Positions 39,447 to 53,051 of a stretch of 64,000 bases of DNA are shown here, in pieces. The number at the start of each line of letters is the position of its first letter. The first letter of the stretch is position 1. The notes beneath the pieces were generated by a model. That model was not told the DNA's origin. It did not search any database and was given only the letters and a program-made list of their open reading frames with translations. Origin of the DNA: Podarcis muralis (Eukaryota); contig NC_135667.1 of NCBI RefSeq assembly GCF_964188315.1, positions 24,490,001 to 24,554,000 of the forward strand, in the 5' to 3' direction. The translations under genes and the position numbers were made by a program.

Positions 39447-40367
39447 TCAAAATATATTTTTAGAAGAATGCCCATAATCTAAGAGTTTCCACAAAGCAGT
39501 CTTGATTTCTTTGTTTCTCATGCTATAGATGAATGGATTCAACATAGGAGGAATTACAGTATAGATCACAGCAAAAGCTATATCCAGATCAGAAGAAGCA
39601 TTAGTGGGAGGCCTTGCATAGGCAAAGAGTGCAGTGCCCATAAACAAAGAGACAACAGTGAGGTGGGGAAGGCAAGTGGAGAGGGCTTTTTTCTGACCAT
39701 GTACTGAAGGAATTCTGCGCACTGTAGCAAATAGCTGCATGTATGTTATGATAATGAACATGAAGCATCCTAGTCCCAGGCAACACCCTAACACAATAAC
39801 CCCTACTTCGACAAGGTAGATATTAGAGCAGGAGAGCTTCAGTAATGTTGGAACTTCACAGAAGAACTGATGGACGTCATTTGAACAGAAGGTGATTGCA
39901 AAAGTGCTACAAGCGTGTAACATGGCATAAAGAAGACTAGCAATCAACACAATGAGGGTCATCTGAATACAAGCTCCTTTGTGCATAATTGTCTCATATT
40001 GTAATGGGTTGCAGATGGCAACATAGCGATCATGTGCCATTACTGTTAGAATGGCAAAATCTGCTGCGACAAAGAACATATAGAAGAAAACCTGGGCCAC
40101 ACACCCAGAGTAAGAAATAGACCTGCTGTTCATGATGGAATTGGCTAATGATTTGGGCATCATGACAGAAGCAGAGCCCATGTCCATCATTGCCAAATTA
40201 GTTAGGAAAAAGTACATTGGTGTATGGAGGTGATGGTCTAGCACTATTGCAGCAATAATGAGAAGATTCCCAGCCATGGTGGTCAAGTACAATCCTAGGA
40301 ACAGAAAGAAGTATAAGATCTGTAGTTCCCGTACTTCTGAGAATTCCCACAGCAGAAACGTTGACAT
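39447..40367 (-). CDS. Olfactory receptor, OR14-like, ancestral start codon lost (N-truncated or incipient pseudogene)
   Basis: About 98% identical to 52116-53051, but the ATG equivalent at 40385-40383 reads AAG; next in-frame Met is residue 7. Confidence 0.8.
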   Translation of the reverse strand: MSTFLLWEFSEVRELQILYFFLFLGLYLTTMAGNLLIIAAIVLDHHLHTPMYFFLTNLAMMDMGSASVMMPKSLANSIMNSRSISYSGCVAQVFFYMFFVAADFAILTVMAHDRYVAICNPLQYETIMHKGACIQMTLIVLIASLLYAMLHACSTFAITFCSNDVHQFFCEVPTLLKLSCSNIYLVEVGVIVLGCCLGLGCFMFIIITYMQLFATVRRIPSVHGQKKALSTCLPHLTVVSLFMGTALFAYARPPTNASSDLDIAFAVIYTVIPPMLNPFIYSMRNKEIKTALWKLLDYGHSSKNIF

Positions 40368-40516
40368 GGAAGTAAGATTGCTCTTTTTTTCTTCAATATT
40401 TGCATTTTCTCTGTTGGAGGAAGAAGCTAAAAAGTGTTAATATTGATTAACAAGCTAATTTAAGCATGCTTCTTGAAATTTCATTATATATTCCACATTA
40501 TTTTGCTAATCAAGTA

Positions 40517-40999: not shown

Positions 41000-41099
41000 G
41001 TGGGAGGCAGTGGAAGACAGGAGTGCCTGGCGTGCTCTGGTCCATGGGTCACGAAGAGTCGGACGTGACTAAACGACTAAACAGCAGCAACAACAACAA
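41000..41099 (+). mobile_element. Bov-B/RTE LINE extreme 3' end
   Basis: gcctggcgtgctctggtccatgggtcacgaagagtcggac...aaacgactaaacagcagcaacaacaac; absent from the right arm (~51730). Confidence 0.8.
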
Positions 41100-43997
41100 G
41101 TAATCTTACAGTAATATGAAGCTATCTGGGGGCTTTTAAACTACTTCCTTTAGTTGCCTTACCCCACAAAAGAAGTTGCTATTAATGCCACTTGGAGAGC
41201 TGTCCCATCACTTGTGGCATTCAAACCCAGGTTTTTCAAAACTAAGTAATAGAGTATATATGTGTTTGTGAATAAGGCAGAATTCTAAGGCAACAGCCTA
41301 TTATGAATGTAGTCTGCTACAGATAAATAGTAAATTGAATGCATTATATTGACAAAAAATCTCCTAATGAATTTCACCTGCCAGTAGTGCTACTGTTTGT
41401 GCCAATATATGTCTCTAATACTTCAGTGGGTGATAATGATCTGGGGTGGATTCGTGTCCCCATGAAATGTAACACAAATCTAGTTCTGCCTGCATGAATT
41501 TTCATGTCATCACTTTCTTATTTTTATGACATGGGGAAAAAAAACCTGCTGCAAATTACCCAGTTACTGGGATCAAGGGTGCAGCCTCGATTGGGATCGT
41601 TCTTCCAGCACACAGACTGAATGGAACTGAACACAGCCCAGTTCCATCATACACGCATAACAAATGGACCACACAGTTGAATGATACAATATATCTGCAT
41701 CAGCTACATCTATTTGCCTTTGGAGCAACAATTAGGAATGTGTTTAGTATACCAGTTGGTCATCATTCATTTTAAAGTTGAGCACTCTAATAAGGACTGG
41801 TATCAGCATACAAGAGTATATAAGACCCCTTTAAAATTGATAGATGAGAAGAAAATAAAATGCTGATAGACACATCTAGATTACATCAGAGTAGAAGGAA
41901 ACTACCAAACCACCTTAAATCATTTTAAAATACCTTTGATGATAAGATTCAATTTTCTCTCCAGCTACTTTAGGGTACGATATGGTAAAGATGTCAGAAT
42001 CCATGCGTCTTCTCAATCAAGCTCTTTCAGCCTTCTTGCAGCACTTGCCACAATATGTGTAACTTTCCTCCCCTCCTTAAAATAGACTGCATATGTGAGG
42101 ATAATAGTCACTAAAGTGGCAACAGTAGACAAGGGAGGGATCATTTTTTTAAGTCTTATTTGTCATCTTGGGATCTTACTCCCAAGAGTCCAGCACAGCT
42201 GATTTGAAAACATTGTTGAAAGTTACTGCTTCTACTTTCACAGTAGACCCCCCCCCCAAAAAAAAGTATTTATATAGAAATTATACAGGAGGGGGCCCAA
42301 ATCAAACTTGTTTTACACCCCCTGGGAAAACTATTAAACCTGAAAGAAAGCCCACAAGTCGATGCAAAATTTTAGTGCAAGGATCAGAGGAGAGCTAGAG
42401 TATAACATTTATCCAGTGAAGTGACAATGGCCACTTACCCTTCTTCCACGGTGAGTGGCAGTTGCGGCCCACTACGGTGCCTCCCTAAGTCCCTGGAGCC
42501 TCGCCATGTTGCCCTGACTTTTGGGTTCCTCCCCAGCCACCACAGAGCATCTTGCCAATCCACGGTGGCCTAGGGGGGCGGTGGAGCTTTTGCAGGCTTC
42601 ACTCAGGTCCACTCCCTGGACTTATAATCAGGCCAACGCAACTCACTGTAGCCCAGTCAGCCTTGTAGTTTTGCTATGGACCCTTCCTCCCAACCACACC
42701 CTGTCATGCCTCGGTTCCCCACCGGGGGCTGAGGGGGATACACGCCCAATGCCTATGCCACGTTTTGCCTACATATGAAATTAATAAAATTGTGGCCTTT
42801 TAATCCCATTACAGTTGTCATGTCTATTCATTCTTCCCACCAGTCAGCTAGGCTCCCTGGGGGCATGGACCTGGGGGTACCCTGTAAATGCTGCTGCTGT
42901 TGGGGGGGGGGTGTATCACCCGTCCACCCCTCCAGGTCAGAAGATAGACTAAAGGATTCCGCCAAAGGACTAACCTGCCAAAATTGTGACTAGTGCTGCG
43001 GGGAAGGCAAAACCTAACAATCAGGGAAAATTCCTTCCCAGCTCCGAAAAACAGCAACCATTAAGGAATCATAGGAAAGCCCACTAAGCTGGATAGGAAA
43101 AGGTTAGAAGAAAAGCAGAAAAACAATAGCAATGCTAAAGGGTGGACATGGTGGGTCACATTACAAGGCTGACTGGGCTACAGTGAGTTGCGTCGGCCTG
43201 ATTATAAATCCAGGGAGTGGACCTGAGTGAAGCCTGCAAAAGCTCCACCCCCCAGGCCACCCTGGATTGGCAAGATGCTCCGCGGTAGCCGGAGAGGAAC
43301 CCAACAGTCAGGGCAACATGGCGAGGCTCCAGGGGCTTAGGGAAGCACTGTGGTGGGCCGCAACTGCCAATCACCATGGAAGAAGGGTAAGTGGCCATTG
43401 TCACTCCACTGGATAAATGTTATACTCTAGCTCTCCTCTGATCCTTGCACTAAAATTTTGCATGGACTTGTGGACTTCCTTTCAGATTCAATAGTTTTCC
43501 CAAGGGGTGTAAAACAAGATTGATTTTGTGTCCCACTCTTGTATAATTTCTACATAAATACTCCCCCCCCCCTACTGTCAATGTAGAAGCAGTAACTTTC
43601 AACAATGTTTTCAGATCAGCTGTGCTGGACTCTTGGGAATAAGATCCCAAGATGACAAATAAGACTTAAAAGTATGATCCTTCCCATGTCTACCGTTGCT
43701 AATTAAGTGACTATTATCCTCACATATGCAGTCTATTTAAAGGCGGGAAAAACAGTTACATGTCCTGTGGCAAGTGCTGCAAGAAGGCCGAAAGAGCTTG
43801 GTTGAGAAGATGCATGGATTCTGACATCTTTATAATATCGTCCCCTAAAGTAGCTGGAAAGGAAATTGAATCTTATCATTAAAGGTATTTTAAAACAATT
43901 TAAGGTGATTTGGTAGTTTCCTTTTACTCTGATGTAATCTAGAGGTGTCTATCAGCATTTTATTTTCTTCTCATCTTTCAATTTTAAAGGAGTCTTA

Positions 43998-44353
43998 AAG
44001 GTAAAGGTAAAGGGACCCCTGGCCATTAGGTCCAGTCGTGGCCGACTCCAGGGTTGCGGCGCTCATCTCACTTTACTGGCTGAAGGAGCCGACATACAGC
44101 TTCCGGGTCATGTGGCCTGCATGACTAAGCCGCTTCTGGCGAACCAGAGCAGCGCACTGAAATGCCATTTACCTTCCTGCCGGAGCGGTACCTATTTATC
44201 TACTTGCACTTTGAAGTGCTTTCGAACTGCTAGGTTGGCAGGAGCAGGGACCGAGCAATGGGAGCTCACCCCACTGTGGGGATTCGAACCGCCAACCTTC
44301 TGATTGGCAAGTCCTAGGTTCTGTAGTTTAACCCACAGCGCCACCCGCATCCC
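43998..44353 (-). mobile_element. Sauria SINE, full length
   Basis: 12-bp TSD AAAGG(A/G)GTCTTA (43986-43997, 44354-44365); single-copy empty site in the left arm near 41822-41833. Confidence 0.93.
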
Positions 44354-44832
44354 AAAGGGGTCTTACATACTCTTGAATGCTGATACCAGTCCTTATTAGA
44401 GTGCTCAGCTTTAAAATGAACAATGACCACCTGGTATGTTAAACAAATTCCTAATGAATGTTCCAAAGGCAAAAAGATGTAGCTGATGTAGATATATTGC
44501 ATCATTCAACTGTGTGGTCCGTTTGTGATGGCCGTATGATGGAACTGGGCTGTGTTCTGTTCCAATCAGTCTGTGTGCTAGAAAAAAGATCCCGATCAAG
44601 GCCACAGCTTTCCCCCCAGTAACTGCATAATTTGCAGCAGGTCTGCCCCCCCTATGTCAGAAAAATAAACGTGATGACATGAAAATTCATGCTGGCAGAA
44701 CTAGATTTGTGTTACATTTCATGGGGACACAAATATACCCCAGATCATTATCACCCACTGAAGTATTAGATACATATATTGGCACAAACAGTACCACTAC
44801 CAGCCTGTGAAATTCATCAGAAGATTTTATGT

Positions 44833-45090
44833 CAGGGGTCAGCAGACTTTTTCAGCAGGGTGGTGGTCCACTCTCCCTCAGACCTTGTGGGGCGGGGCGG
44901 ACTATATTTTGAAAATAAATATAACAATGAATGAATTCCTATGCCCCACAAATAATCCAGAGATGCATTTTAATTAAAAGGACACATTCTACTCATGTAA
45001 AAACACGCTGATTCTCGGACTGTCCGTGGGCCGGATTTGGAAGGTGATTCGGCCAGATACGACCCCCAGGCCTTAGTTTACCTACCCATG
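44833..45090. mobile_element. hAT-type non-autonomous element
   Basis: CAGGGGTCAGCAGACT / AGTTTACCTACCCATG ends; degenerate 8-bp TSD (TTTTATGT / TTTTGTGG); absent from the left arm. Confidence 0.7.
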
Positions 45091-45207
45091 TTTTGTGGCA
45101 ATATAATACATTCAATTTAATATTTATCTGTAGCAGACTACATTCAAAATAGGCTGTTACCTTAGAATTCTGTCTTATTCCCAAACACATGTATACTCTG
45201 TTACTTA

Positions 45208-45592: not shown

Positions 45593-45601
45593 TTAGGTAG
45601 T

Positions 45602-46009
45602 TGTCAGGGAACTGCCATCGGAAGGACAGGAGGTGCAAAGGCTCCCTCAGGTTGAAAGAGACGGAGCAGCTGAAGAGGGAACCAGTAGGGGGCGAGCAGG
45701 AACTTCCAGGGAAAGTGAGTCGGAGGGGTGGCTCAGAGACGTTTCCAGCGAAAACAGTGGAGAGGTCTCAGGACCTCCTATAGGGACACCCACGCCTCGC
45801 CGGAAACTGTCACGCAGAGAGTCCAGAAGACGTGTTTCCGTGAAAGAGCTTTTATGTTGGAAACGTTTCCGAAAGCAACCACTTTCGGATTCTACTAGCG
45901 ATTGACGCAGCCATGCCGGAGGGGCTCCGTCACAGGCAGAGGTTTGAAAACCTGATCAAACTCTGAGGGACTTGCATTTTACGCACAAGCAGCTCATCAT
46001 CCCACCACA
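45602..46009 (+). repeat. 5' LTR
   Basis: TGTCAGGGA...CCCACCACA; matches 50692-51099. Confidence 0.96.
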
Positions 46010-46011
46010 GC

Positions 46012-46022
46012 AATCCGAAAGT
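46012..46022 (+). other. Self-priming primer-binding site (candidate)
   Basis: AATCCGAAAGT is the exact reverse complement of ACTTTCGGATT at 45881-45891 in the LTR; no TGG tRNA-type PBS follows the LTR. Confidence 0.8.
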
Positions 46023-46055
46023 CACTGAAAGCCAGCTTGTGCAAGCAGCGGCATC

Positions 46056-47075
46056 ATGAGCGACCCAGCCGGAACCGGAGGAGCAGGAGCAGCTGGAGGA
46101 GGTCCAAGCCTGGAAGAAAGGTACAGGGCGTTGGAGATCCAGCTGGCCATGCAAACGGCGAGGCTTGAGGAGAGGAGGGCTCAGGATGCAGAAAAGGGAA
46201 AGGAGAAAACCACCTCGATAGCCAGAAAGGTGCCAGGATTGGTGCAGAAATTCGGGGGAGATCCCAGAAACTATCATGCCTTTAGAACTGAGATGCAATA
46301 CGCTCTCAATCTGCAGTATGATGACTTCCCCGACGAGGAATCGCGAGTGGCTTTTGTAATTGGCCATCTCGAAGGGGGGGCGAAGGATTGGGTTCGACCC
46401 CTGATGGCAGTGAATAATGAGATACTAAAGGACACGAGGAAGTTTTTTCGTGCCATGGACCTGATGTTTTCCAGTGACATTGAGCAGGGGGTGGTACGAA
46501 GGCAGTTAATGGCTTGCAAACAGGGGAGCCGATCTGTCCGTGAGTACTGGACTGAGTTTACTATGCTGATTCATAAATTGGGGTGGGACCTATCAGCGGA
46601 ACCCATCCAAATGCTTTTTGAAGAGGGGCTTTCTTCGGCCGTTAAAGATGAACTTTCCCGGGGGCCAAGGGCGGAGTCTATGGACCAGCTGACCAAATCC
46701 GCGCTGGCCATAGGAGCGCGCCAGGAAGCGAGAGCTTTGGAAAGGCGGGAAGGGAAAGGAGAACGTTGGAGGGAACTGCGCATTCCGGACATTCCAGAGC
46801 CACCTTTCCCGCCGGCAGAGCCGATGGAAGTTGGAACAGCGCGGGCGCGCGCAGTTTCAAATCCCAGTGAAGGGCGGAAGAAGGAGGGAAAGAGCGCCAA
46901 GAAATGTTATCTCTGCCAACAGCCAGGGCACTTTGCCAGAGTCTGCCCACAAAGAAAGGAATGGCAAGGGATGGCAGGAGCTGTGGGGGAAAGGGAGGAG
47001 GAAAACAAGGAGCAAGTAAAAGCCAACGCCTGGCTGCCACCGTCGGGGCACAGCAGCCAGGCCAAAGAGCAGTGA
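46056..47075 (+). CDS. gag: Gag (retrotransposon capsid domain plus CCHC zinc knuckle), 339 aa
   Basis: ATG 47 nt after the LTR; retrotransposon-gag-like core (RVAFVIGHLEGGAKDW...CKQGSRSVREYWTEF); CYLCQQPGHFARVC. Confidence 0.93.
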   Translation: MSDPAGTGGAGAAGGGPSLEERYRALEIQLAMQTARLEERRAQDAEKGKEKTTSIARKVPGLVQKFGGDPRNYHAFRTEMQYALNLQYDDFPDEESRVAFVIGHLEGGAKDWVRPLMAVNNEILKDTRKFFRAMDLMFSSDIEQGVVRRQLMACKQGSRSVREYWTEFTMLIHKLGWDLSAEPIQMLFEEGLSSAVKDELSRGPRAESMDQLTKSALAIGARQEARALERREGKGERWRELRIPDIPEPPFPPAEPMEVGTARARAVSNPSEGRKKEGKSAKKCYLCQQPGHFARVCPQRKEWQGMAGAVGEREEENKEQVKANAWLPPSGHSSQAKEQ

Positions 47076-50000
47076 AAGTGCCCACGCCAGAACCACCCAG
47101 ACCTGCTTTAGTGATAGAAGTGTTACTAGAGCTGCCAAATGGACACCCCCTACAGGTCAAGGCGCTTTTGGATTCAGGCAGCTCCTGTAATTTTATGAGT
47201 AAGGAGTTTGCAGCTGAGCACCAGATACAGACCATCCCTTTAAGTAATCCCTTGCAGGTGACCACGATTGATGGCAGAGAGCTGTTGGGAGGAGAAGTTA
47301 GCCAACAGACTGTCCCGATGATAATGAGGGTGGCAAGGCACACCGAACGGATAGCGTTTAATGTGGCCACCTTGGGAGGAGCTCCCATCATCTTGGGGAT
47401 GAGCTGGCTGGCGCTACACGATCCGCTAGTGGGCTGGCATCAGAGGGTGGTCTCCTTTGGGTCAGCGCATTGCCTAGAACACTGCAAGCAGGGGAAGGTT
47501 CAGGGCGGAGACAGAGTCACCCTAGCCGGGATGGAAGTAATGGGCAGAGGGAAGGTGCCCCCGCAATACGCAGATCTGAGCAACGTATTCAGCGAAAGGG
47601 AAGCAGACAAACTGCCGCCGCATAGACCCTTTGACTGTCAAATCAACCTACTCCCTGGGGCCCAACTCCCAGTGGGCAAGCTGTACGCCATGTCCGACAG
47701 GGAGATGCAGGAGCTGAGGGAGTTCATTGACAAAAACCTGAAGCGAGGTTTCATCAGAGAGTCCCGAGCGGTGGGGGGCAGCCCAGTGTTTTTTGTGGAC
47801 AAAAAAAACACAGATAAGCCGAGACTTGTGTGTGACTTCAGGGCCTTGAATGCAGTGTCGGAACCCCTGGCTTTCCCTATGCCCCGAATTGATGACATTT
47901 TGACCAGGGTAAGGAAGGGAAAGATTTTTACAAAGCTGGACCTGCGGGGGGCGTACAATCTGATACGCATAAGGAAGGGAGATGAATGGAAGACCACCAT
48001 GTTCACCCCTTTGGGAGCCTTTGAATACCTCGTTATGCCCTTCGGTCTACAAGGAGGCTCCGCGTGCTTTCAAGCGTTTATTAACCACGTTCTGGGGCCT
48101 TTGCTCTACAAGAACTGTGTGGCCTTTTTAGACGACGTGTTGGTGTATTCGGAGGATGAGGAGCAGCATGTGAGGGACGTTCGAGAAGTGTTGGGCAGGC
48201 TGCAAGCCAACCAGCTGTGGGTGAAACTGGAGAAGTGCCAGTTTCATACCAAGGAGGTGGAATTCCTGGGGTACCGCTTGTCAGACAAGGGATTGGCCAT
48301 GGATCCAGGCAAGGTCCAAGCGGTACTGGAATGGAAGACACCGAAGACCAAGAAGGATGTGCAAAGATTCTTGGGGTTTGGGAACTTTTATCGGAAGTTC
48401 ATCAAGAACTTTGCCCACTTGACGGCGCCCATCACCGACTGCCTCAGCAGCAAGAAGAAATTTGTTTGGACGGCGGAGGCGGAGCGAGCATTTGAAGAAC
48501 TGAAAAGGGCTTTCGCCTCGGAAGAACAACTTCTGCATGTGGATTTACGAAAACCCATGAGAGTGGAAACCGATGCGTCCGACCGGGCGGTAGGGGCGGT
48601 ACTTCTTCAACCGGGGAGGAGTATGTCAGAGTGGAGACCGTGTGCCTTCTTCTCGCGGAAGCTGAATAAATCCGAGAGGAACTACACGGTGTATGACAGG
48701 GAACTACTTGCCATTCACGAAGCGTTCCGGAGGTGGAGACATTTATTAATTGGGGCGCAACACAAGGTGCAAGTGTGCACCGACCACAAGAATTTAGAGT
48801 ATTGGAGAACAGCTCGAGTGCTCAACCAACGACAAGTGAGATGGGCACAGGAATTCTCTAAATTCAACTTTGAAATTTGTTATGTGCCAGGTCCAGAAAA
48901 CGTCAGGGCGGACGCTCTCTCACGCAAACCAGAGTATTGGGAGGGGGAGGGGGCGATTGAAGAGAGACATGTCATCCCTGAGGACCGCTGGGTGTGTGGG
49001 GCGGCGCTGGTGGGGCAACGAGAACTGGTAGAGGAAACGGAAAATGATGAATATGCCCAGGATAAGCTCAGAGGACTCAGGGGGGAGGGCGAGAGCCCCG
49101 AAGGTTTTGAGGAAAGAAATGGGGCATTGTATTACAAAGGGGCACTGTATATACCCGAAGGTGAATTGAGGGGGAGAGTACTCAAGCAGTTGCACGATAG
49201 CCCCACGGCGGGACATTTTGGGCAACACAAGACCATGTGGTTGGTTACCAGGGAATTCTGGTGGCCCAAGGTGAGGGAAGATGTAAGGGAGTATGTAAGA
49301 GGGTGTGACCAATGTCAGCGAGCCAAAGGGGAAAGACGGGCGCCGGCAGGGTTATTAGAACCATTACCCACACCAGAACGGCCTTGGGAAGCGGTATCAA
49401 TAGATTTTATGACGGATCTGCCGAAGTCCAAGGGGAAAACAGCCATCATGGTAGTAGTAGACCTGTTAACAAAGATGTGCCACTTTGTAGCATGCTCACA
49501 TGCAGTCACAGCGGAAGAAACAGCGAAGTTGTTTGTAGAACACATCTTTAGGTTGCACGGGGCTCCCTTGAGGGTGATCTCGGACCGCGGCAAACAATTT
49601 ACTTCCAGGTTCTGGAGGAAGCTCATGAGCTTGCTGCACGTGGAAGTCAATTTTTCAACGGCCCGGCACCCTGAAACCAACGGGCAGGCGGAAAGAGCAA
49701 ATGGCATTCTTCAACAATATCTGAGGTGTTATGTCAATGACAGAGAGAACGATTGGGTCGAAAAGTTGGCGCTGGCAGAATTTGCCTACAATAATGCGGA
49801 GAATGTGTCCACAGGGATGAGCCCCTTTTTGGCTAATTACGGGTGTCACCCCAGGGCATTTCCAGGGGAGGGAGGGGAGAGATGGAGCGTTCCAGCGGCT
49901 GAACATTTTGTAGAAGAGATGGAAGCGATCCATCATCAGCTCCAGCTCAACTTAGAAAGGGCCAAGGCACAATATAAGAAGCAGGCAGACAAGAACAGAA

Positions 50001-50995
50001 GGGAAGGTGAAACCATAAGGGTGGGGGATCAAGTGTGGCTGTCAACCCAAGGGTTGCCGTTCAAAGGGGGTTGTAAGAAATTGAGGCCCAGAAGATTGGG
50101 ACCCTTTGAGGTCATTCAGCAGGTCAACCCGGTGGCTTTCAAACTCCGGTTACCCAACCACATGAAATTGCACCCAGTGTTCCACAGGTCGTTACTGTCA
50201 CCATACAGGGGGGGACGTGAAGGGGAGCACGTCAGGGGACCAGCCTTGGAAGAGAGGGAACGCAGCAACCATGTAGCGGAAATCCTCGATTCCAGGTGGA
50301 AGGGAAATCAGGTAGAGTATTTGGTGGCGTGGGAAGGGGAACCGGAGTCAGAAAACACCTGGGTGACTGCAGGGGAGGTCAATGACGAGGTTTTAACAGA
50401 AACGTTCCACCAAAGATTCCCTAGGAAACCACAGCCGGTAGAAAGGTTTAGGAGGGAGTACTTCGGCACCACCGACGAGGAACAGGAAATGGAAGGATTC
50501 ACGGAGTCGGAGTTGGAAGAGGGAATAGACTCCGAAGACGAGGAGTATCGAGAGACGAGGGACAGTAGCAGGTGGAGGGAAGTGTTCGAAACTTCGGACG
50601 ATGAGGAAGGTTCTTTCAGGGGTTTTACTTCCTCCCAGCCCGGAGGGGAGGAGACGGGAGGGGGTGAAGGGGGCCCTGGAGGGGAGGTGGATGTCAGGGA
50701 ACTGCCATCGGAAGGACAGGAGGTGCAAAGGCTCCCTCAGGTTGAAAGAGACGGAGCAGCTGAAGAGGGAACCAGTAGGGGGCGAGCAGGAACTTCCAGG
50801 GAAAGTGAGTCGGAGGGGTGGCTCAGAGACGTTTCCAGCGAAAACAGTGGAGAGGTCTCAGGACCTCCTATAGGGACACCCACGCCTCGCCGGAAACTGT
50901 CACGCAGAGAGTCCAGAAGACGTGTTTCCGTGAAAGAGCTTTTATGTTGGAAACGTTTCCGAAAGCAACCACTTTCGGATTCTACTAGCGATTGA
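46904..50995 (+). CDS. pol: Pol (protease, RT, RNase H, integrase, chromodomain, C-terminal extension); -1 frame relative to gag, entered by frameshift rather than at the TTG shown in the ORF track
   Basis: LLDSGS protease; KLDLRGAYNL and FLDD RT motifs; ETDASD RNase H; HHCC (LHDSPTAGH...CDQC), D-D-E core, GPF motif; chromodomain VAEILDSRW...YLVAWEG...ENTWV. Confidence 0.95.
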   Translation: MLSLPTARALCQSLPTKKGMARDGRSCGGKGGGKQGASKSQRLAATVGAQQPGQRAVKVPTPEPPRPALVIEVLLELPNGHPLQVKALLDSGSSCNFMSKEFAAEHQIQTIPLSNPLQVTTIDGRELLGGEVSQQTVPMIMRVARHTERIAFNVATLGGAPIILGMSWLALHDPLVGWHQRVVSFGSAHCLEHCKQGKVQGGDRVTLAGMEVMGRGKVPPQYADLSNVFSEREADKLPPHRPFDCQINLLPGAQLPVGKLYAMSDREMQELREFIDKNLKRGFIRESRAVGGSPVFFVDKKNTDKPRLVCDFRALNAVSEPLAFPMPRIDDILTRVRKGKIFTKLDLRGAYNLIRIRKGDEWKTTMFTPLGAFEYLVMPFGLQGGSACFQAFINHVLGPLLYKNCVAFLDDVLVYSEDEEQHVRDVREVLGRLQANQLWVKLEKCQFHTKEVEFLGYRLSDKGLAMDPGKVQAVLEWKTPKTKKDVQRFLGFGNFYRKFIKNFAHLTAPITDCLSSKKKFVWTAEAERAFEELKRAFASEEQLLHVDLRKPMRVETDASDRAVGAVLLQPGRSMSEWRPCAFFSRKLNKSERNYTVYDRELLAIHEAFRRWRHLLIGAQHKVQVCTDHKNLEYWRTARVLNQRQVRWAQEFSKFNFEICYVPGPENVRADALSRKPEYWEGEGAIEERHVIPEDRWVCGAALVGQRELVEETENDEYAQDKLRGLRGEGESPEGFEERNGALYYKGALYIPEGELRGRVLKQLHDSPTAGHFGQHKTMWLVTREFWWPKVREDVREYVRGCDQCQRAKGERRAPAGLLEPLPTPERPWEAVSIDFMTDLPKSKGKTAIMVVVDLLTKMCHFVACSHAVTAEETAKLFVEHIFRLHGAPLRVISDRGKQFTSRFWRKLMSLLHVEVNFSTARHPETNGQAERANGILQQYLRCYVNDRENDWVEKLALAEFAYNNAENVSTGMSPFLANYGCHPRAFPGEGGERWSVPAAEHFVEEMEAIHHQLQLNLERAKAQYKKQADKNRREGETIRVGDQVWLSTQGLPFKGGCKKLRPRRLGPFEVIQQVNPVAFKLRLPNHMKLHPVFHRSLLSPYRGGREGEHVRGPALEERERSNHVAEILDSRWKGNQVEYLVAWEGEPESENTWVTAGEVNDEVLTETFHQRFPRKPQPVERFRREYFGTTDEEQEMEGFTESELEEGIDSEDEEYRETRDSSRWREVFETSDDEEGSFRGFTSSQPGGEETGGGEGGPGGEVDVRELPSEGQEVQRLPQVERDGAAEEGTSRGRAGTSRESESEGWLRDVSSENSGEVSGPPIGTPTPRRKLSRRESRRRVSVKELLCWKRFRKQPLSDSTSD
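47028..47083 (+). promoter_or_regulatory. Predicted H-type RNA pseudoknot (frameshift stimulator)
   Basis: Stem 1 GCCTGGCTGC (47028-37) with GCAGCCAGGC (47053-62); stem 2 GGGCAC (47046-51) with GTGCCC (47078-83). Confidence 0.7.
50678..50691 (+). other. Polypurine tract
   Basis: GGAGGGGAGGTGGA immediately 5' of the 3' LTR. Confidence 0.85.
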
Positions 50996-51099
50996 CGCAG
51001 CCATGCCGGAGGGGCTCCGTCACAGGCAGAGGTTTGAAAACCTGATCAAACTCTGAGGGACTTGCATTTTACGCACAAGCAGCTCATCATCCCACCACA
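50692..51099 (+). repeat. 3' LTR
   Basis: Identical by eye to the 5' LTR; first 304 nt lie within the pol ORF. Confidence 0.96.
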
Positions 51100-51322
51100 G
51101 TAGTGGACTAGTCATGTAGATGTAGACAGTATTTTGCAAGATAGACATATAGAAGAACCCTAATTCAGTGGTATACAAAGTGCTTTGTATGCAAGATCTC
51201 CCCATTTGACAGATGGTTTCAGGTTTGGGAGCTGCCAGTCCAACACTGTCTTCTTCAAGTGATATCTAAATGCCATATAAAACATATGTTTAACATCATG
51301 ATTATCTCTTCAAAGATTACTA

Positions 51323-51564: not shown

Positions 51565-52115
51565 TATAGCAGATGAGGGTTTGAATTAGGCCACAAGTGA
51601 TGGGACAGCTCTACAAGTGACATTAATAGCAGCTTCCTTTGTGGGGCAAAGCAACTAAAGGAAGTAGTTAAAAAACCCCCAGATAGCTTCATGTTACTGC
51701 AAGATTACTTAGAGTCCCCCAAACATGCAGACTGAGCAGAAATAGAAAATATTAGTTAATATATAAAGTTTGGAGTGAAATCAGTGTTTGAGATACTTTA
51801 GATACTTTATATAATAACAGATATGCAAGCTTCAATTTACAAATGGGCTATTTTGGCATAATCTTTAATCTCAATTGTTTTTACACTACTTGATTGGCAA
51901 AAGAATGGGGAATATATAATTAAATTTCAGGAAGCATTTTTTAAAAAATGTTCTATATTCTGATTTTAATCTGTTGGGATCAGCCCAGAGTGGCTGGGGA
52001 AACCTAGCCCGATGGATGGGGTATAATAAATAAATGATATAATTAGCTCATTAATCATTATTAACACATTTTAGCTTCTTCCTCCAACAGAGAGAATGCA
52101 AATACTGAAGAAAAA

Positions 52116-53051
52116 ATGAGCAATCTTACTTCCATGTCAACGTTTCTGCTGTGGGAATTCTCAGATGTACGAGAACTACAGATCTTATACTTCTTTCTGT
52201 TCCTAGGATTGTACTTGACCACCATGGCTGGGAATCTTCTCATTATTGCTGCATTTGCGCTAGACCATCACCTCCATACACCAATGTACTTTTTCCTAAC
52301 TAATTTGGCAATGATGGACATGGGCTCTGCTTCTGTCATGATGCCCAAATCATTAGCCAATTCCATCATGAACAGCAGGTCTATTTCTTACTCTGGGTGT
52401 GTGGCCCAGGTTTTCTTCTATATGTTCTTTGTCGCAGCAGATTTTGCCATTCTAACAGTAATGGCACATGATCGCTATGTTGCCATCTGCAACCCGTTAC
52501 AGTATGAGACAATTATGCACAAAGGAGCTTGTATTCAGATGACCCTCATTGTGTTGATTGCTAGTCTTCTTCATGCCATGTTACATACTTGTAGCACTTT
52601 TGCAATCACCTTCTGTTCAAATGACGTCCATCAGTTCTTCTGTGAAGTTCCAACATTACTGAAGCTCTCCTGCTCTAATATCTACCTTGTCGAAGTAGGG
52701 GTTATTGTGTTAGGGTGTTGCCTGGGACTAGGATGCTTCATGTTCATTATCATAACATACATGCAGCTATTTGCTACAGTGCGCAGAATTCCTTCAGTAC
52801 ATGGTCAGAAAAAAGCCCTCTCCACTTGCCTTCCCCACCTCACTGTTGTCTCTTTGTTTATGGGCACTGCACTCTTTGCCTATGCAAAGCCTCCCACTAA
52901 TGCTTCTTCTGATCTGGATATAGCTTTTGCTGTGATCTATACCATAATTCCTCCCATGTTGAATCCATTCATCTATAGCATGAGAAACAAAGAAATCAAG
53001 ACTGCTTTGTGGAAACTCTTAGATTTTGGGCATTCCTCTAAAAATAGATAA
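52116..53051 (+). CDS. Olfactory receptor, OR14-like, 311 aa, intact
   Basis: MSNLTS start (acceptor CAG at 52090); complete OR motif set. Confidence 0.95.
   Translation: MSNLTSMSTFLLWEFSDVRELQILYFFLFLGLYLTTMAGNLLIIAAFALDHHLHTPMYFFLTNLAMMDMGSASVMMPKSLANSIMNSRSISYSGCVAQVFFYMFFVAADFAILTVMAHDRYVAICNPLQYETIMHKGACIQMTLIVLIASLLHAMLHTCSTFAITFCSNDVHQFFCEVPTLLKLSCSNIYLVEVGVIVLGCCLGLGCFMFIIITYMQLFATVRRIPSVHGQKKALSTCLPHLTVVSLFMGTALFAYAKPPTNASSDLDIAFAVIYTIIPPMLNPFIYSMRNKEIKTALWKLLDFGHSSKNR

Follow-up and report, generated by a model that had tools for sequence, protein, structure and literature searches.

Does the integrase of a Ty3/Gypsy retrotransposon in the lizard Podarcis muralis dock on LEDGF/p75 or HRP2 through linear motifs of host type, and does it choose its insertion sites in this way? 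The question is raised by the window, the whole stretch of 64,000 nucleotides that was analysed, in which the acidic tail behind the chromodomain of one element carries two candidate TND-interacting motifs (TIMs). The features of the element, in order along the window, are:

45597..45601, no strand: left copy of the 5-bp target-site duplication, identical to 51100-51104
45602..46009, plus strand: 5' LTR, 408 bp, TG...CA, identical to the 3' LTR
46012..46022, plus strand: 11 nt complementary to LTR positions 45881-45891, likely the self-priming site
46029..47075, plus strand: gag frame with capsid and zinc knuckle (PF03732, PF19259, PF00098)
46871..50995, plus strand: pol frame, -1 relative to gag (open frame and Pfam domains)
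50273..50416, plus strand: chromodomain (PF00385, E 1e-7, above cut-off; cage scoring)
50438..50500, plus strand: TIM-like motif 1 (helix-like 50438-50464, acidic linker 50465-50488, MEGF 50489-50500)
50564..50626, plus strand: TIM-like motif 2 (helix-like 50564-50587, acidic linker 50588-50614, FRGF 50615-50626)
50678..50691, plus strand: polypurine tract before the 3' LTR (from the sequence)
50692..51099, plus strand: 3' LTR, identical to the 5' LTR
51100..51104, no strand: right copy of the 5-bp target-site duplication, identical to 45597-45601

Pol encodes protease, RT, RNase H, integrase, SH3, chromodomain and the acidic tail. With gag followed by PR-RT-RH-IN, LTRs, a target-site duplication and a chromodomain at the integrase's C-terminal end, the element is an intact Ty3/Gypsy chromovirus; an env frame is absent. 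The closest named protein to its pol is a Podarcis muralis entry (98%). The family is multi-copy, and we call it young because chromodomain and tail are 100% identical in 145 of the 150 scored matches, among the matches listed, and because the DNA of motif 2 has 159 exact copies in the genome (reversed control, 0). Near-identical element DNA is present in two organisms. The 11 nt complementary to the LTR make self-priming likely, presumably of the Tf1/sushi type; a TGG-type primer site is absent behind the 5' LTR. Gag and pol overlap at 46871-47075, where a G-run/A-run may be the site of the -1 frameshift. Pol extends for 101 codons into the 3' LTR (50692-50995), where its last part is basic and resembles an NLS. 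The short LLCWKR-like pol end, also seen in distant relatives, coincides with a TATA-like run some 30 bases upstream of the presumed transcript start, and may persist for the sake of the DNA.

The window copy is adjoined by olfactory-receptor and V2R-like frames and is intergenic, outside gene bodies. Eight olfactory-receptor-like frames are clustered at 6973-59927 together with V2R-like exons, the genes at 39447-40436 (minus strand) and 52065-53051 (plus strand) are arms of an inverted duplication that flank the element, and nested inverted repeats at 41098-45207 form a large imperfect palindrome with its centre near 42900. No element-bearing RNA data are on record. The reads of one RNA run cover the element thinly and on both strands, which is no evidence of expression, and no joint excising the motifs was seen among them.

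An earlier note on this DNA had proposed two related acidic repeats behind the chromodomain, each with FxGF and CK2-type sites. Within the open pol frame (46871-50995) the repeats lie where they had been placed: EYFGTT begins at 50456 and EVFETS at 50579, and the Pfam Chromo match (pol residues 1135-1182) is upstream of both. Their common layout is a hydrophobic helix-like segment, an acidic S/T linker and (F/M)xGF. Two S/T-x-x-D/E sites are indeed present in each (50468 and 50471; 50591 and 50594), with 3 further sites between the motifs. The FxGF itself is borne out for the second repeat, FRGF at 50615-50626, but the first reads MEGF, although FxGF is the form found in most relatives. At this place LEGF is found in close relatives and FEGF, FVGF or FKGF in those further removed, so the M or L at the first F looks derived.

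Our motif definitions are drawn from reviews. In the published description a TIM has three parts: a helix, a linker that is acidic, 8-16 residues long and furnished with CK2 sites, and FxGF, which is optional in general but required by all known LEDGF and HRP2 partners (PMC9987994). Both window motifs have such a linker, of 8 residues in motif 1 and 9 in motif 2, acidic and with S/T CK2 sites. A stricter consensus, D/ExExFxGF, is given together with MLL1 helix phenylalanines at i,i+4 (PMC8022399). It is matched by relatives such as P0251, L061 and L074 and by neither window motif: both are off at the second E, motif 1 is also off at the first F (M), and motif 2 has G at the conserved E. Single-sequence folding places short helices at the helix-like segments, with low confidence (mean pLDDT 42.5). 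Shuffling the 191-residue tail yields a bare FxGF in 2.6% of cases, helix, linker and FxGF together in 0.03%, and two relaxed copies not once in 200,000; the latter two figures are flattering, as the shuffle pattern was composed after the motif was seen.

The reading that we favour, with fair confidence, is that both motifs are look-alikes of host TIMs and act as a tether, by way of the IBD of LEDGF/p75 or HRP2, to H3K36-methylated transcribed chromatin. Once processed, the integrase would offer the IBD two disordered motifs, the helix filling one pocket and the FxGF the other. Phosphorylation of the linker by CK2 would raise affinity and strengthen docking, and the two motifs may add avidity. 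The PWWP domain of the reader would then hold the complex at H3K36-methylated nucleosomes, with a consequent effect on insertion sites. Binding to LEDGF or HRP2, taken by itself, is likely; for binding together with a site bias the balance tips only slightly in favour.

The site bias was approached through the combined T-A and G-C skew, the planned proxy for transcribed DNA. A link between skew and transcription is known from mammals; replication can also skew DNA. Flanks of 10 kb were compared in three sets: young copies of the window family (60, taken from 146 of the 150 listed), a family that is caged but has no motif (40 copies) and random windows (40); masking removed one flank from each family, leaving 59 and 39. 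Mean absolute skew was 0.064 in young copies, 0.045 in the motif-less family and 0.044 in random windows. Eight flank measures were compared in all. In skew, young flanks differed from the pooled others at p 0.003-0.004 under four maskings, half-window agreement of skew gave p 0.001-0.004, and skew above 0.07 was found in 26/59 young flanks vs 18/79 others (p 0.01). GC, CpG and repeat content of young flanks showed no difference from random. The proxy is poorly calibrated: the windows in or at PSIP1 and HDGFL2, sense-positive in 4/4, reach just +0.02 to +0.04, which does not exceed random. RNA reads on one high-skew flank were repeat reads only. Neither an orientation bias (25/59, p 0.30) nor a strong target-sequence preference (30 sites) was found, and the chromosome-level distribution of the window family shows no clear departure from length (p 0.07). 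Insertion is non-random and fits transcription units without proving them.

Apparent insertion hotspots at the pairs L122/L124 and L126/L127 were rejected, as the target duplications are shared; these are segmental, tandem or assembly duplicates, not separate insertions. The first PSIP1 exon has a copy of the related subfamily (G000:C17:25482674-25483036) some 30 kb upstream of it, probably by chance.

A motif-bearing sister family, family B (L034-L045, P0009-P0012), has one FxGF, a linker rich in S/T rather than D/E and a chromodomain that is heavily eroded. Contig C20, which is probably the W chromosome, carries 20 of the 30 youngest copies of family B vs 1 of 150 in the window family; the motif-less control family is dispersed as well (2/42 on C20, p 0.12). 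The youngest copies of family B also crowd near chromosome ends, unlike those of the window family.

The crowding on contig C20 and the position of the window copy between olfactory-receptor genes argue against the targeting part of the reading. The motifs might instead bind LEDGF or HRP2 for integrase stability, chromatin retention or catalytic stimulation, and not for site choice. All the evidence on the motif fits this account equally well, and so do the wide differences in genomic distribution among motif-bearing families and the intergenic position of the window copy. In flies, the contact between an FxGF and a LEDGF-type domain, that of JIL-1 with JASPer, is reported as stabilising (10.1101/624023). 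We nevertheless regard this account as unlikely, given that the flanks of young copies differ in strand asymmetry from both random windows and the motif-less family.

The predicted tether requires a partner, and both readers, PSIP1 and HDGFL2, are encoded by the host genome, where the PSIP1 exon is 100% identical to a Podarcis entry. The identity of the partner was approached by running motif profiles made only from retroelements against 177,635 PDB sequences (E<=10). The 16-motif long-linker profile returned two matches, JPO2 in 5YI9 (E 0.22) and MLL1 in 2MSR_A (E 0.99), both of them LEDGF ligands, and the JPO2 and MLL1 peptides align directly with the retroelement profile. The 34-motif profile also returned two, 5YI9 (E 1.6) and an unrelated TIR protein, and one single-motif query returned three, 5YI9 among them. 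The window tail alone retrieved no TIM-bearing chain from the PDB, its 3 matches being unrelated. Individually the matches to LEDGF ligands are non-significant (E 0.2-1.6); chains with an IBD ligand are few in the PDB (six fusions), and the chance of one of two matches being such a chain is about 7e-5. The motif is a close mimic of LEDGF/HRP2-binding motifs. The original suggestion of a LEDGF/TFIIS-N-type mimic is thus upheld in that the profiles retrieve LEDGF ligands, and narrowed in that the FxGF favours LEDGF/HRP2 over TFIIS/IWS1.

Complex prediction with LEDGF, which the earlier note had called for, lends weak support to binding of the lizard protein. For the 33 residues of motif 2 paired with the IBD of Podarcis LEDGF, the score is 0.39 vs 0.02 for the best of 3 controls; at least 90% of contacts are shared between runs, and the partner has a pLDDT of at least 57. 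The pass mark admits 51/78 solved and 2/108 mismatched pairs in a microbial benchmark, a calibration that does not cover peptides, and 39/65 solved pairs without a like complex and 2/126 unrelated pairs in eukaryotes. Passing scores of 0.60 or below include only 5/78 solved pairs, yet all 4 passing mismatches. Since like complexes have already been solved, the pass may be memory.

A pass of this kind does not tell which family member binds, which lends some weight to the idea that the docking motifs are real but meet another partner, either the TND of IWS1, TFIIS, ELOA, PNUTS or MED26 or an unrelated acidic-Phe reader. Readers of the latter kind include the adaptin ear and histone-chaperone surfaces. 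The linker of family B is not acidic, as this idea would allow, and TIMs are described as able to bind several TNDs promiscuously (PMC9987994). The same source describes FxGF as special to LEDGF/HRP2 (PMC9987994), and it is the best-kept part of the motif here; moreover, the long-linker profile finds its only PDB look-alikes among LEDGF ligands. These two points make a different partner quite improbable.

Conservation in relatives was followed at several distances. Among 120 listed homologues (98 with a scorable chromodomain, 39 with a tail of at least 30 residues), the motif is present in 7, all Podarcis entries. Among 150 representatives of a 50%-identity library it is present in 3 of the 79 with a scorable chromodomain, all 3 in the clade described below, and all named carriers among the homologues and representatives searched are Podarcis. 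A profile search gave 17 proteins, some 46-64% identical over SH3, chromodomain and tail, that keep the helix, the linker and FxGF or a near variant. Further subfamilies came from host-genome searches with three motif-bearing relatives, and the motif is kept across subfamilies about 37-64% identical over the same region, despite indels between the motifs. An in-frame, acid-preceded FxGF occurs in 40 of 50 genome loci, a biased sample in that the queries used to collect them bore the motif themselves; the other 10 are basal copies or carry frameshifts or substitutions. Further afield, a metagenome scan gave 5 distant loci and a viral scan 1, and an ESM Atlas query returned chromodomain clusters only, under 0.9.

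Alignment of 34 motifs, for which xxG[FL] and acidity upstream were the sole selection criteria, shows at least 90% retention of each of three residues: the F at the helix end, the linker T and an E. The codon of the first F is TTC in 19 and TTT in 13, with one M and one L, and that of the last F is TTC in 20 and TTT in 14; all four GGN codons are used for G, and 8 different residues occur at the x position. The motif is constrained as protein rather than as DNA, because change at F, G and F is synonymous while x varies freely. The earlier note had staked its proposal on conservation across vertebrate chromovirus Pol tails. The motif is kept throughout one clade and is not general to vertebrate chromoviruses; the loss of conservation that was to count against the proposal did not appear, the protein-level constraint extending over the whole clade. 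It is very improbable that the acidic tail is a by-product of purine-rich DNA near the polypurine tract and that FxGF is kept by descent or nucleic-acid constraint: the low complexity of the tail, the frequency of bare FxGF in its shuffles and a clade known so far from a single genus would suit such an origin, but the synonymous variation with a free x largely refutes it, and the motif was retained across the divergent subfamilies with indels between the motifs and was doubled and kept in a 15-row subclade.

An integrase tree of 65 rows was built by a quick method, with an outgroup that is not cleanly separated and basal forks left open; L083, L094 and L096 were left off, having too little integrase. 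One clade of 32 rows (SH-aLRT 99) has the motif in 27/32. Of its other 5 rows, 4 are without an in-frame motif and 1 was missed by the pattern yet bears the motif by eye. Outside the clade the motif is found in 0/26 scorable rows, 7 further rows being unscorable. Within it, the 15-row subclade (support 98) has mostly two motifs.

The chromodomain changes in the same clade. Type I, methyl-lysine-reading chromodomains are defined by three aromatic cage residues (PMC6317226), and the window chromodomain falls outside this type, with N, W and E at the cage vs Y/F, W and Y/F, or one aromatic of three. All three aromatics are found in 0/27 motif-bearing clade rows vs 25/26 rows outside. In the two clade rows that branch earliest or are unresolved, the cage is intact or nearly so and the tail is acidic but has no motif, L087 has an intact cage and the halves of the motif in two frames, and in later clade rows cage positions 1 and 3 are lost. 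Off the tree, L083 (1705-1788) combines an intact cage with an acidic tail ending FVGL, possibly an early or decayed motif. This single event suggests an order in which the motif was gained from an acidic tail, the cage decayed and the motif was then doubled. As both changes belong to a single clade, they do not testify independently to a swap, and loss of the cage does not prove loss of function, since plant type II chromodomains are also without the same two cage residues (PMC6317226). Just short of even, in our judgement, is the prospect that the lineage swapped its means of chromatin targeting, the motif arising de novo while the cage was intact, before cage decay and doubling, that it so arrived at the tether of HIV through mimicry of a linear motif, and that the 159 young insertions record that targeting.

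If the tethering reading is true, LEDGF tethering had an independent origin, in a Ty3/Gypsy element and by way of a host-type linear motif, and this would be the first mobile-element TIM found in print in the literature searched. The clade holds intermediates, namely an intact cage without the motif, an intact cage with it, and, where the cage is eroded, either one motif or two; a change of targeting mechanism can thus be traced on the tree. The roughly 159 nearly identical insertions constitute a natural site library. Use of such a motif by an integrase would be a new form of host-tether hijacking, in which binding is likely and targeting plausible.

The claim that LEDGF-type targeting had not been described for Gypsy elements agrees with our literature search, which took in few subscription papers: no description of an FxGF or TND-interacting motif in a retroelement was found. 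Judging by a reference title in a review, LEDGF use is considered specific to lentiviruses among integrases (PMC9987994).

The host TIMs and IBD-binding motifs, those of JPO2/CDCA7L, MLL1, IWS1, MED1 and CDC7-ASK and of fly JIL-1, have the helix, the acidic S/T linker and FxGF in common with the window motifs. JPO2 has tandem copies of the motif, as the window element does (PMC9987994). The host motifs sit in host regulators, whereas those of the window are in the integrase of a mobile element and their binding is predicted. PogZ, a domesticated pogo transposase and LEDGF partner, is a transposon-derived IBD binder (PDB fusion 6EMP), but it is a domesticated DNA-transposase gene, not an active retroelement integrase, and in a reported assay it failed to transpose the Passer element (PMC9976928).

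The chromoviruses of the Tf1/sushi-like vertebrate lineage, related to PEG10/RTL1, share with the window element the domain order, chromodomain, LTRs, 5-bp target duplication and self-priming-like complement. Unlike them, the window element has lost cage residues 1 and 3 and has added an acidic motif tail. In MLV (IN-BET), Ty1 (IN-AC40) and Ty3 (IN-TFIIIB), the integrase also has a C-terminal segment by which it docks on a chromatin or transcription protein of the host. The segment of Ty5 that docks on Sir4 is also C-terminal and has a phospho-switch. The motifs of MLV, Ty1, Ty3 and Ty5 are different ones with other host targets, and none is reported with LEDGF or HRP2.

The same tether as that predicted here is used by the lentiviral integrases, which bind LEDGF/p75 with HRP2 as back-up. 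They contact LEDGF through the folded catalytic core, and to our knowledge they contain no FxGF motif; the window element would use a disordered linear motif in place of a folded core. The outcome in lentiviruses is described as integration into transcribed, H3K36me3 chromatin (PMC5053271; PMC9987994). Because the window element is a Ty3/Gypsy element without an env frame, its tether would be convergent with the lentiviral one.
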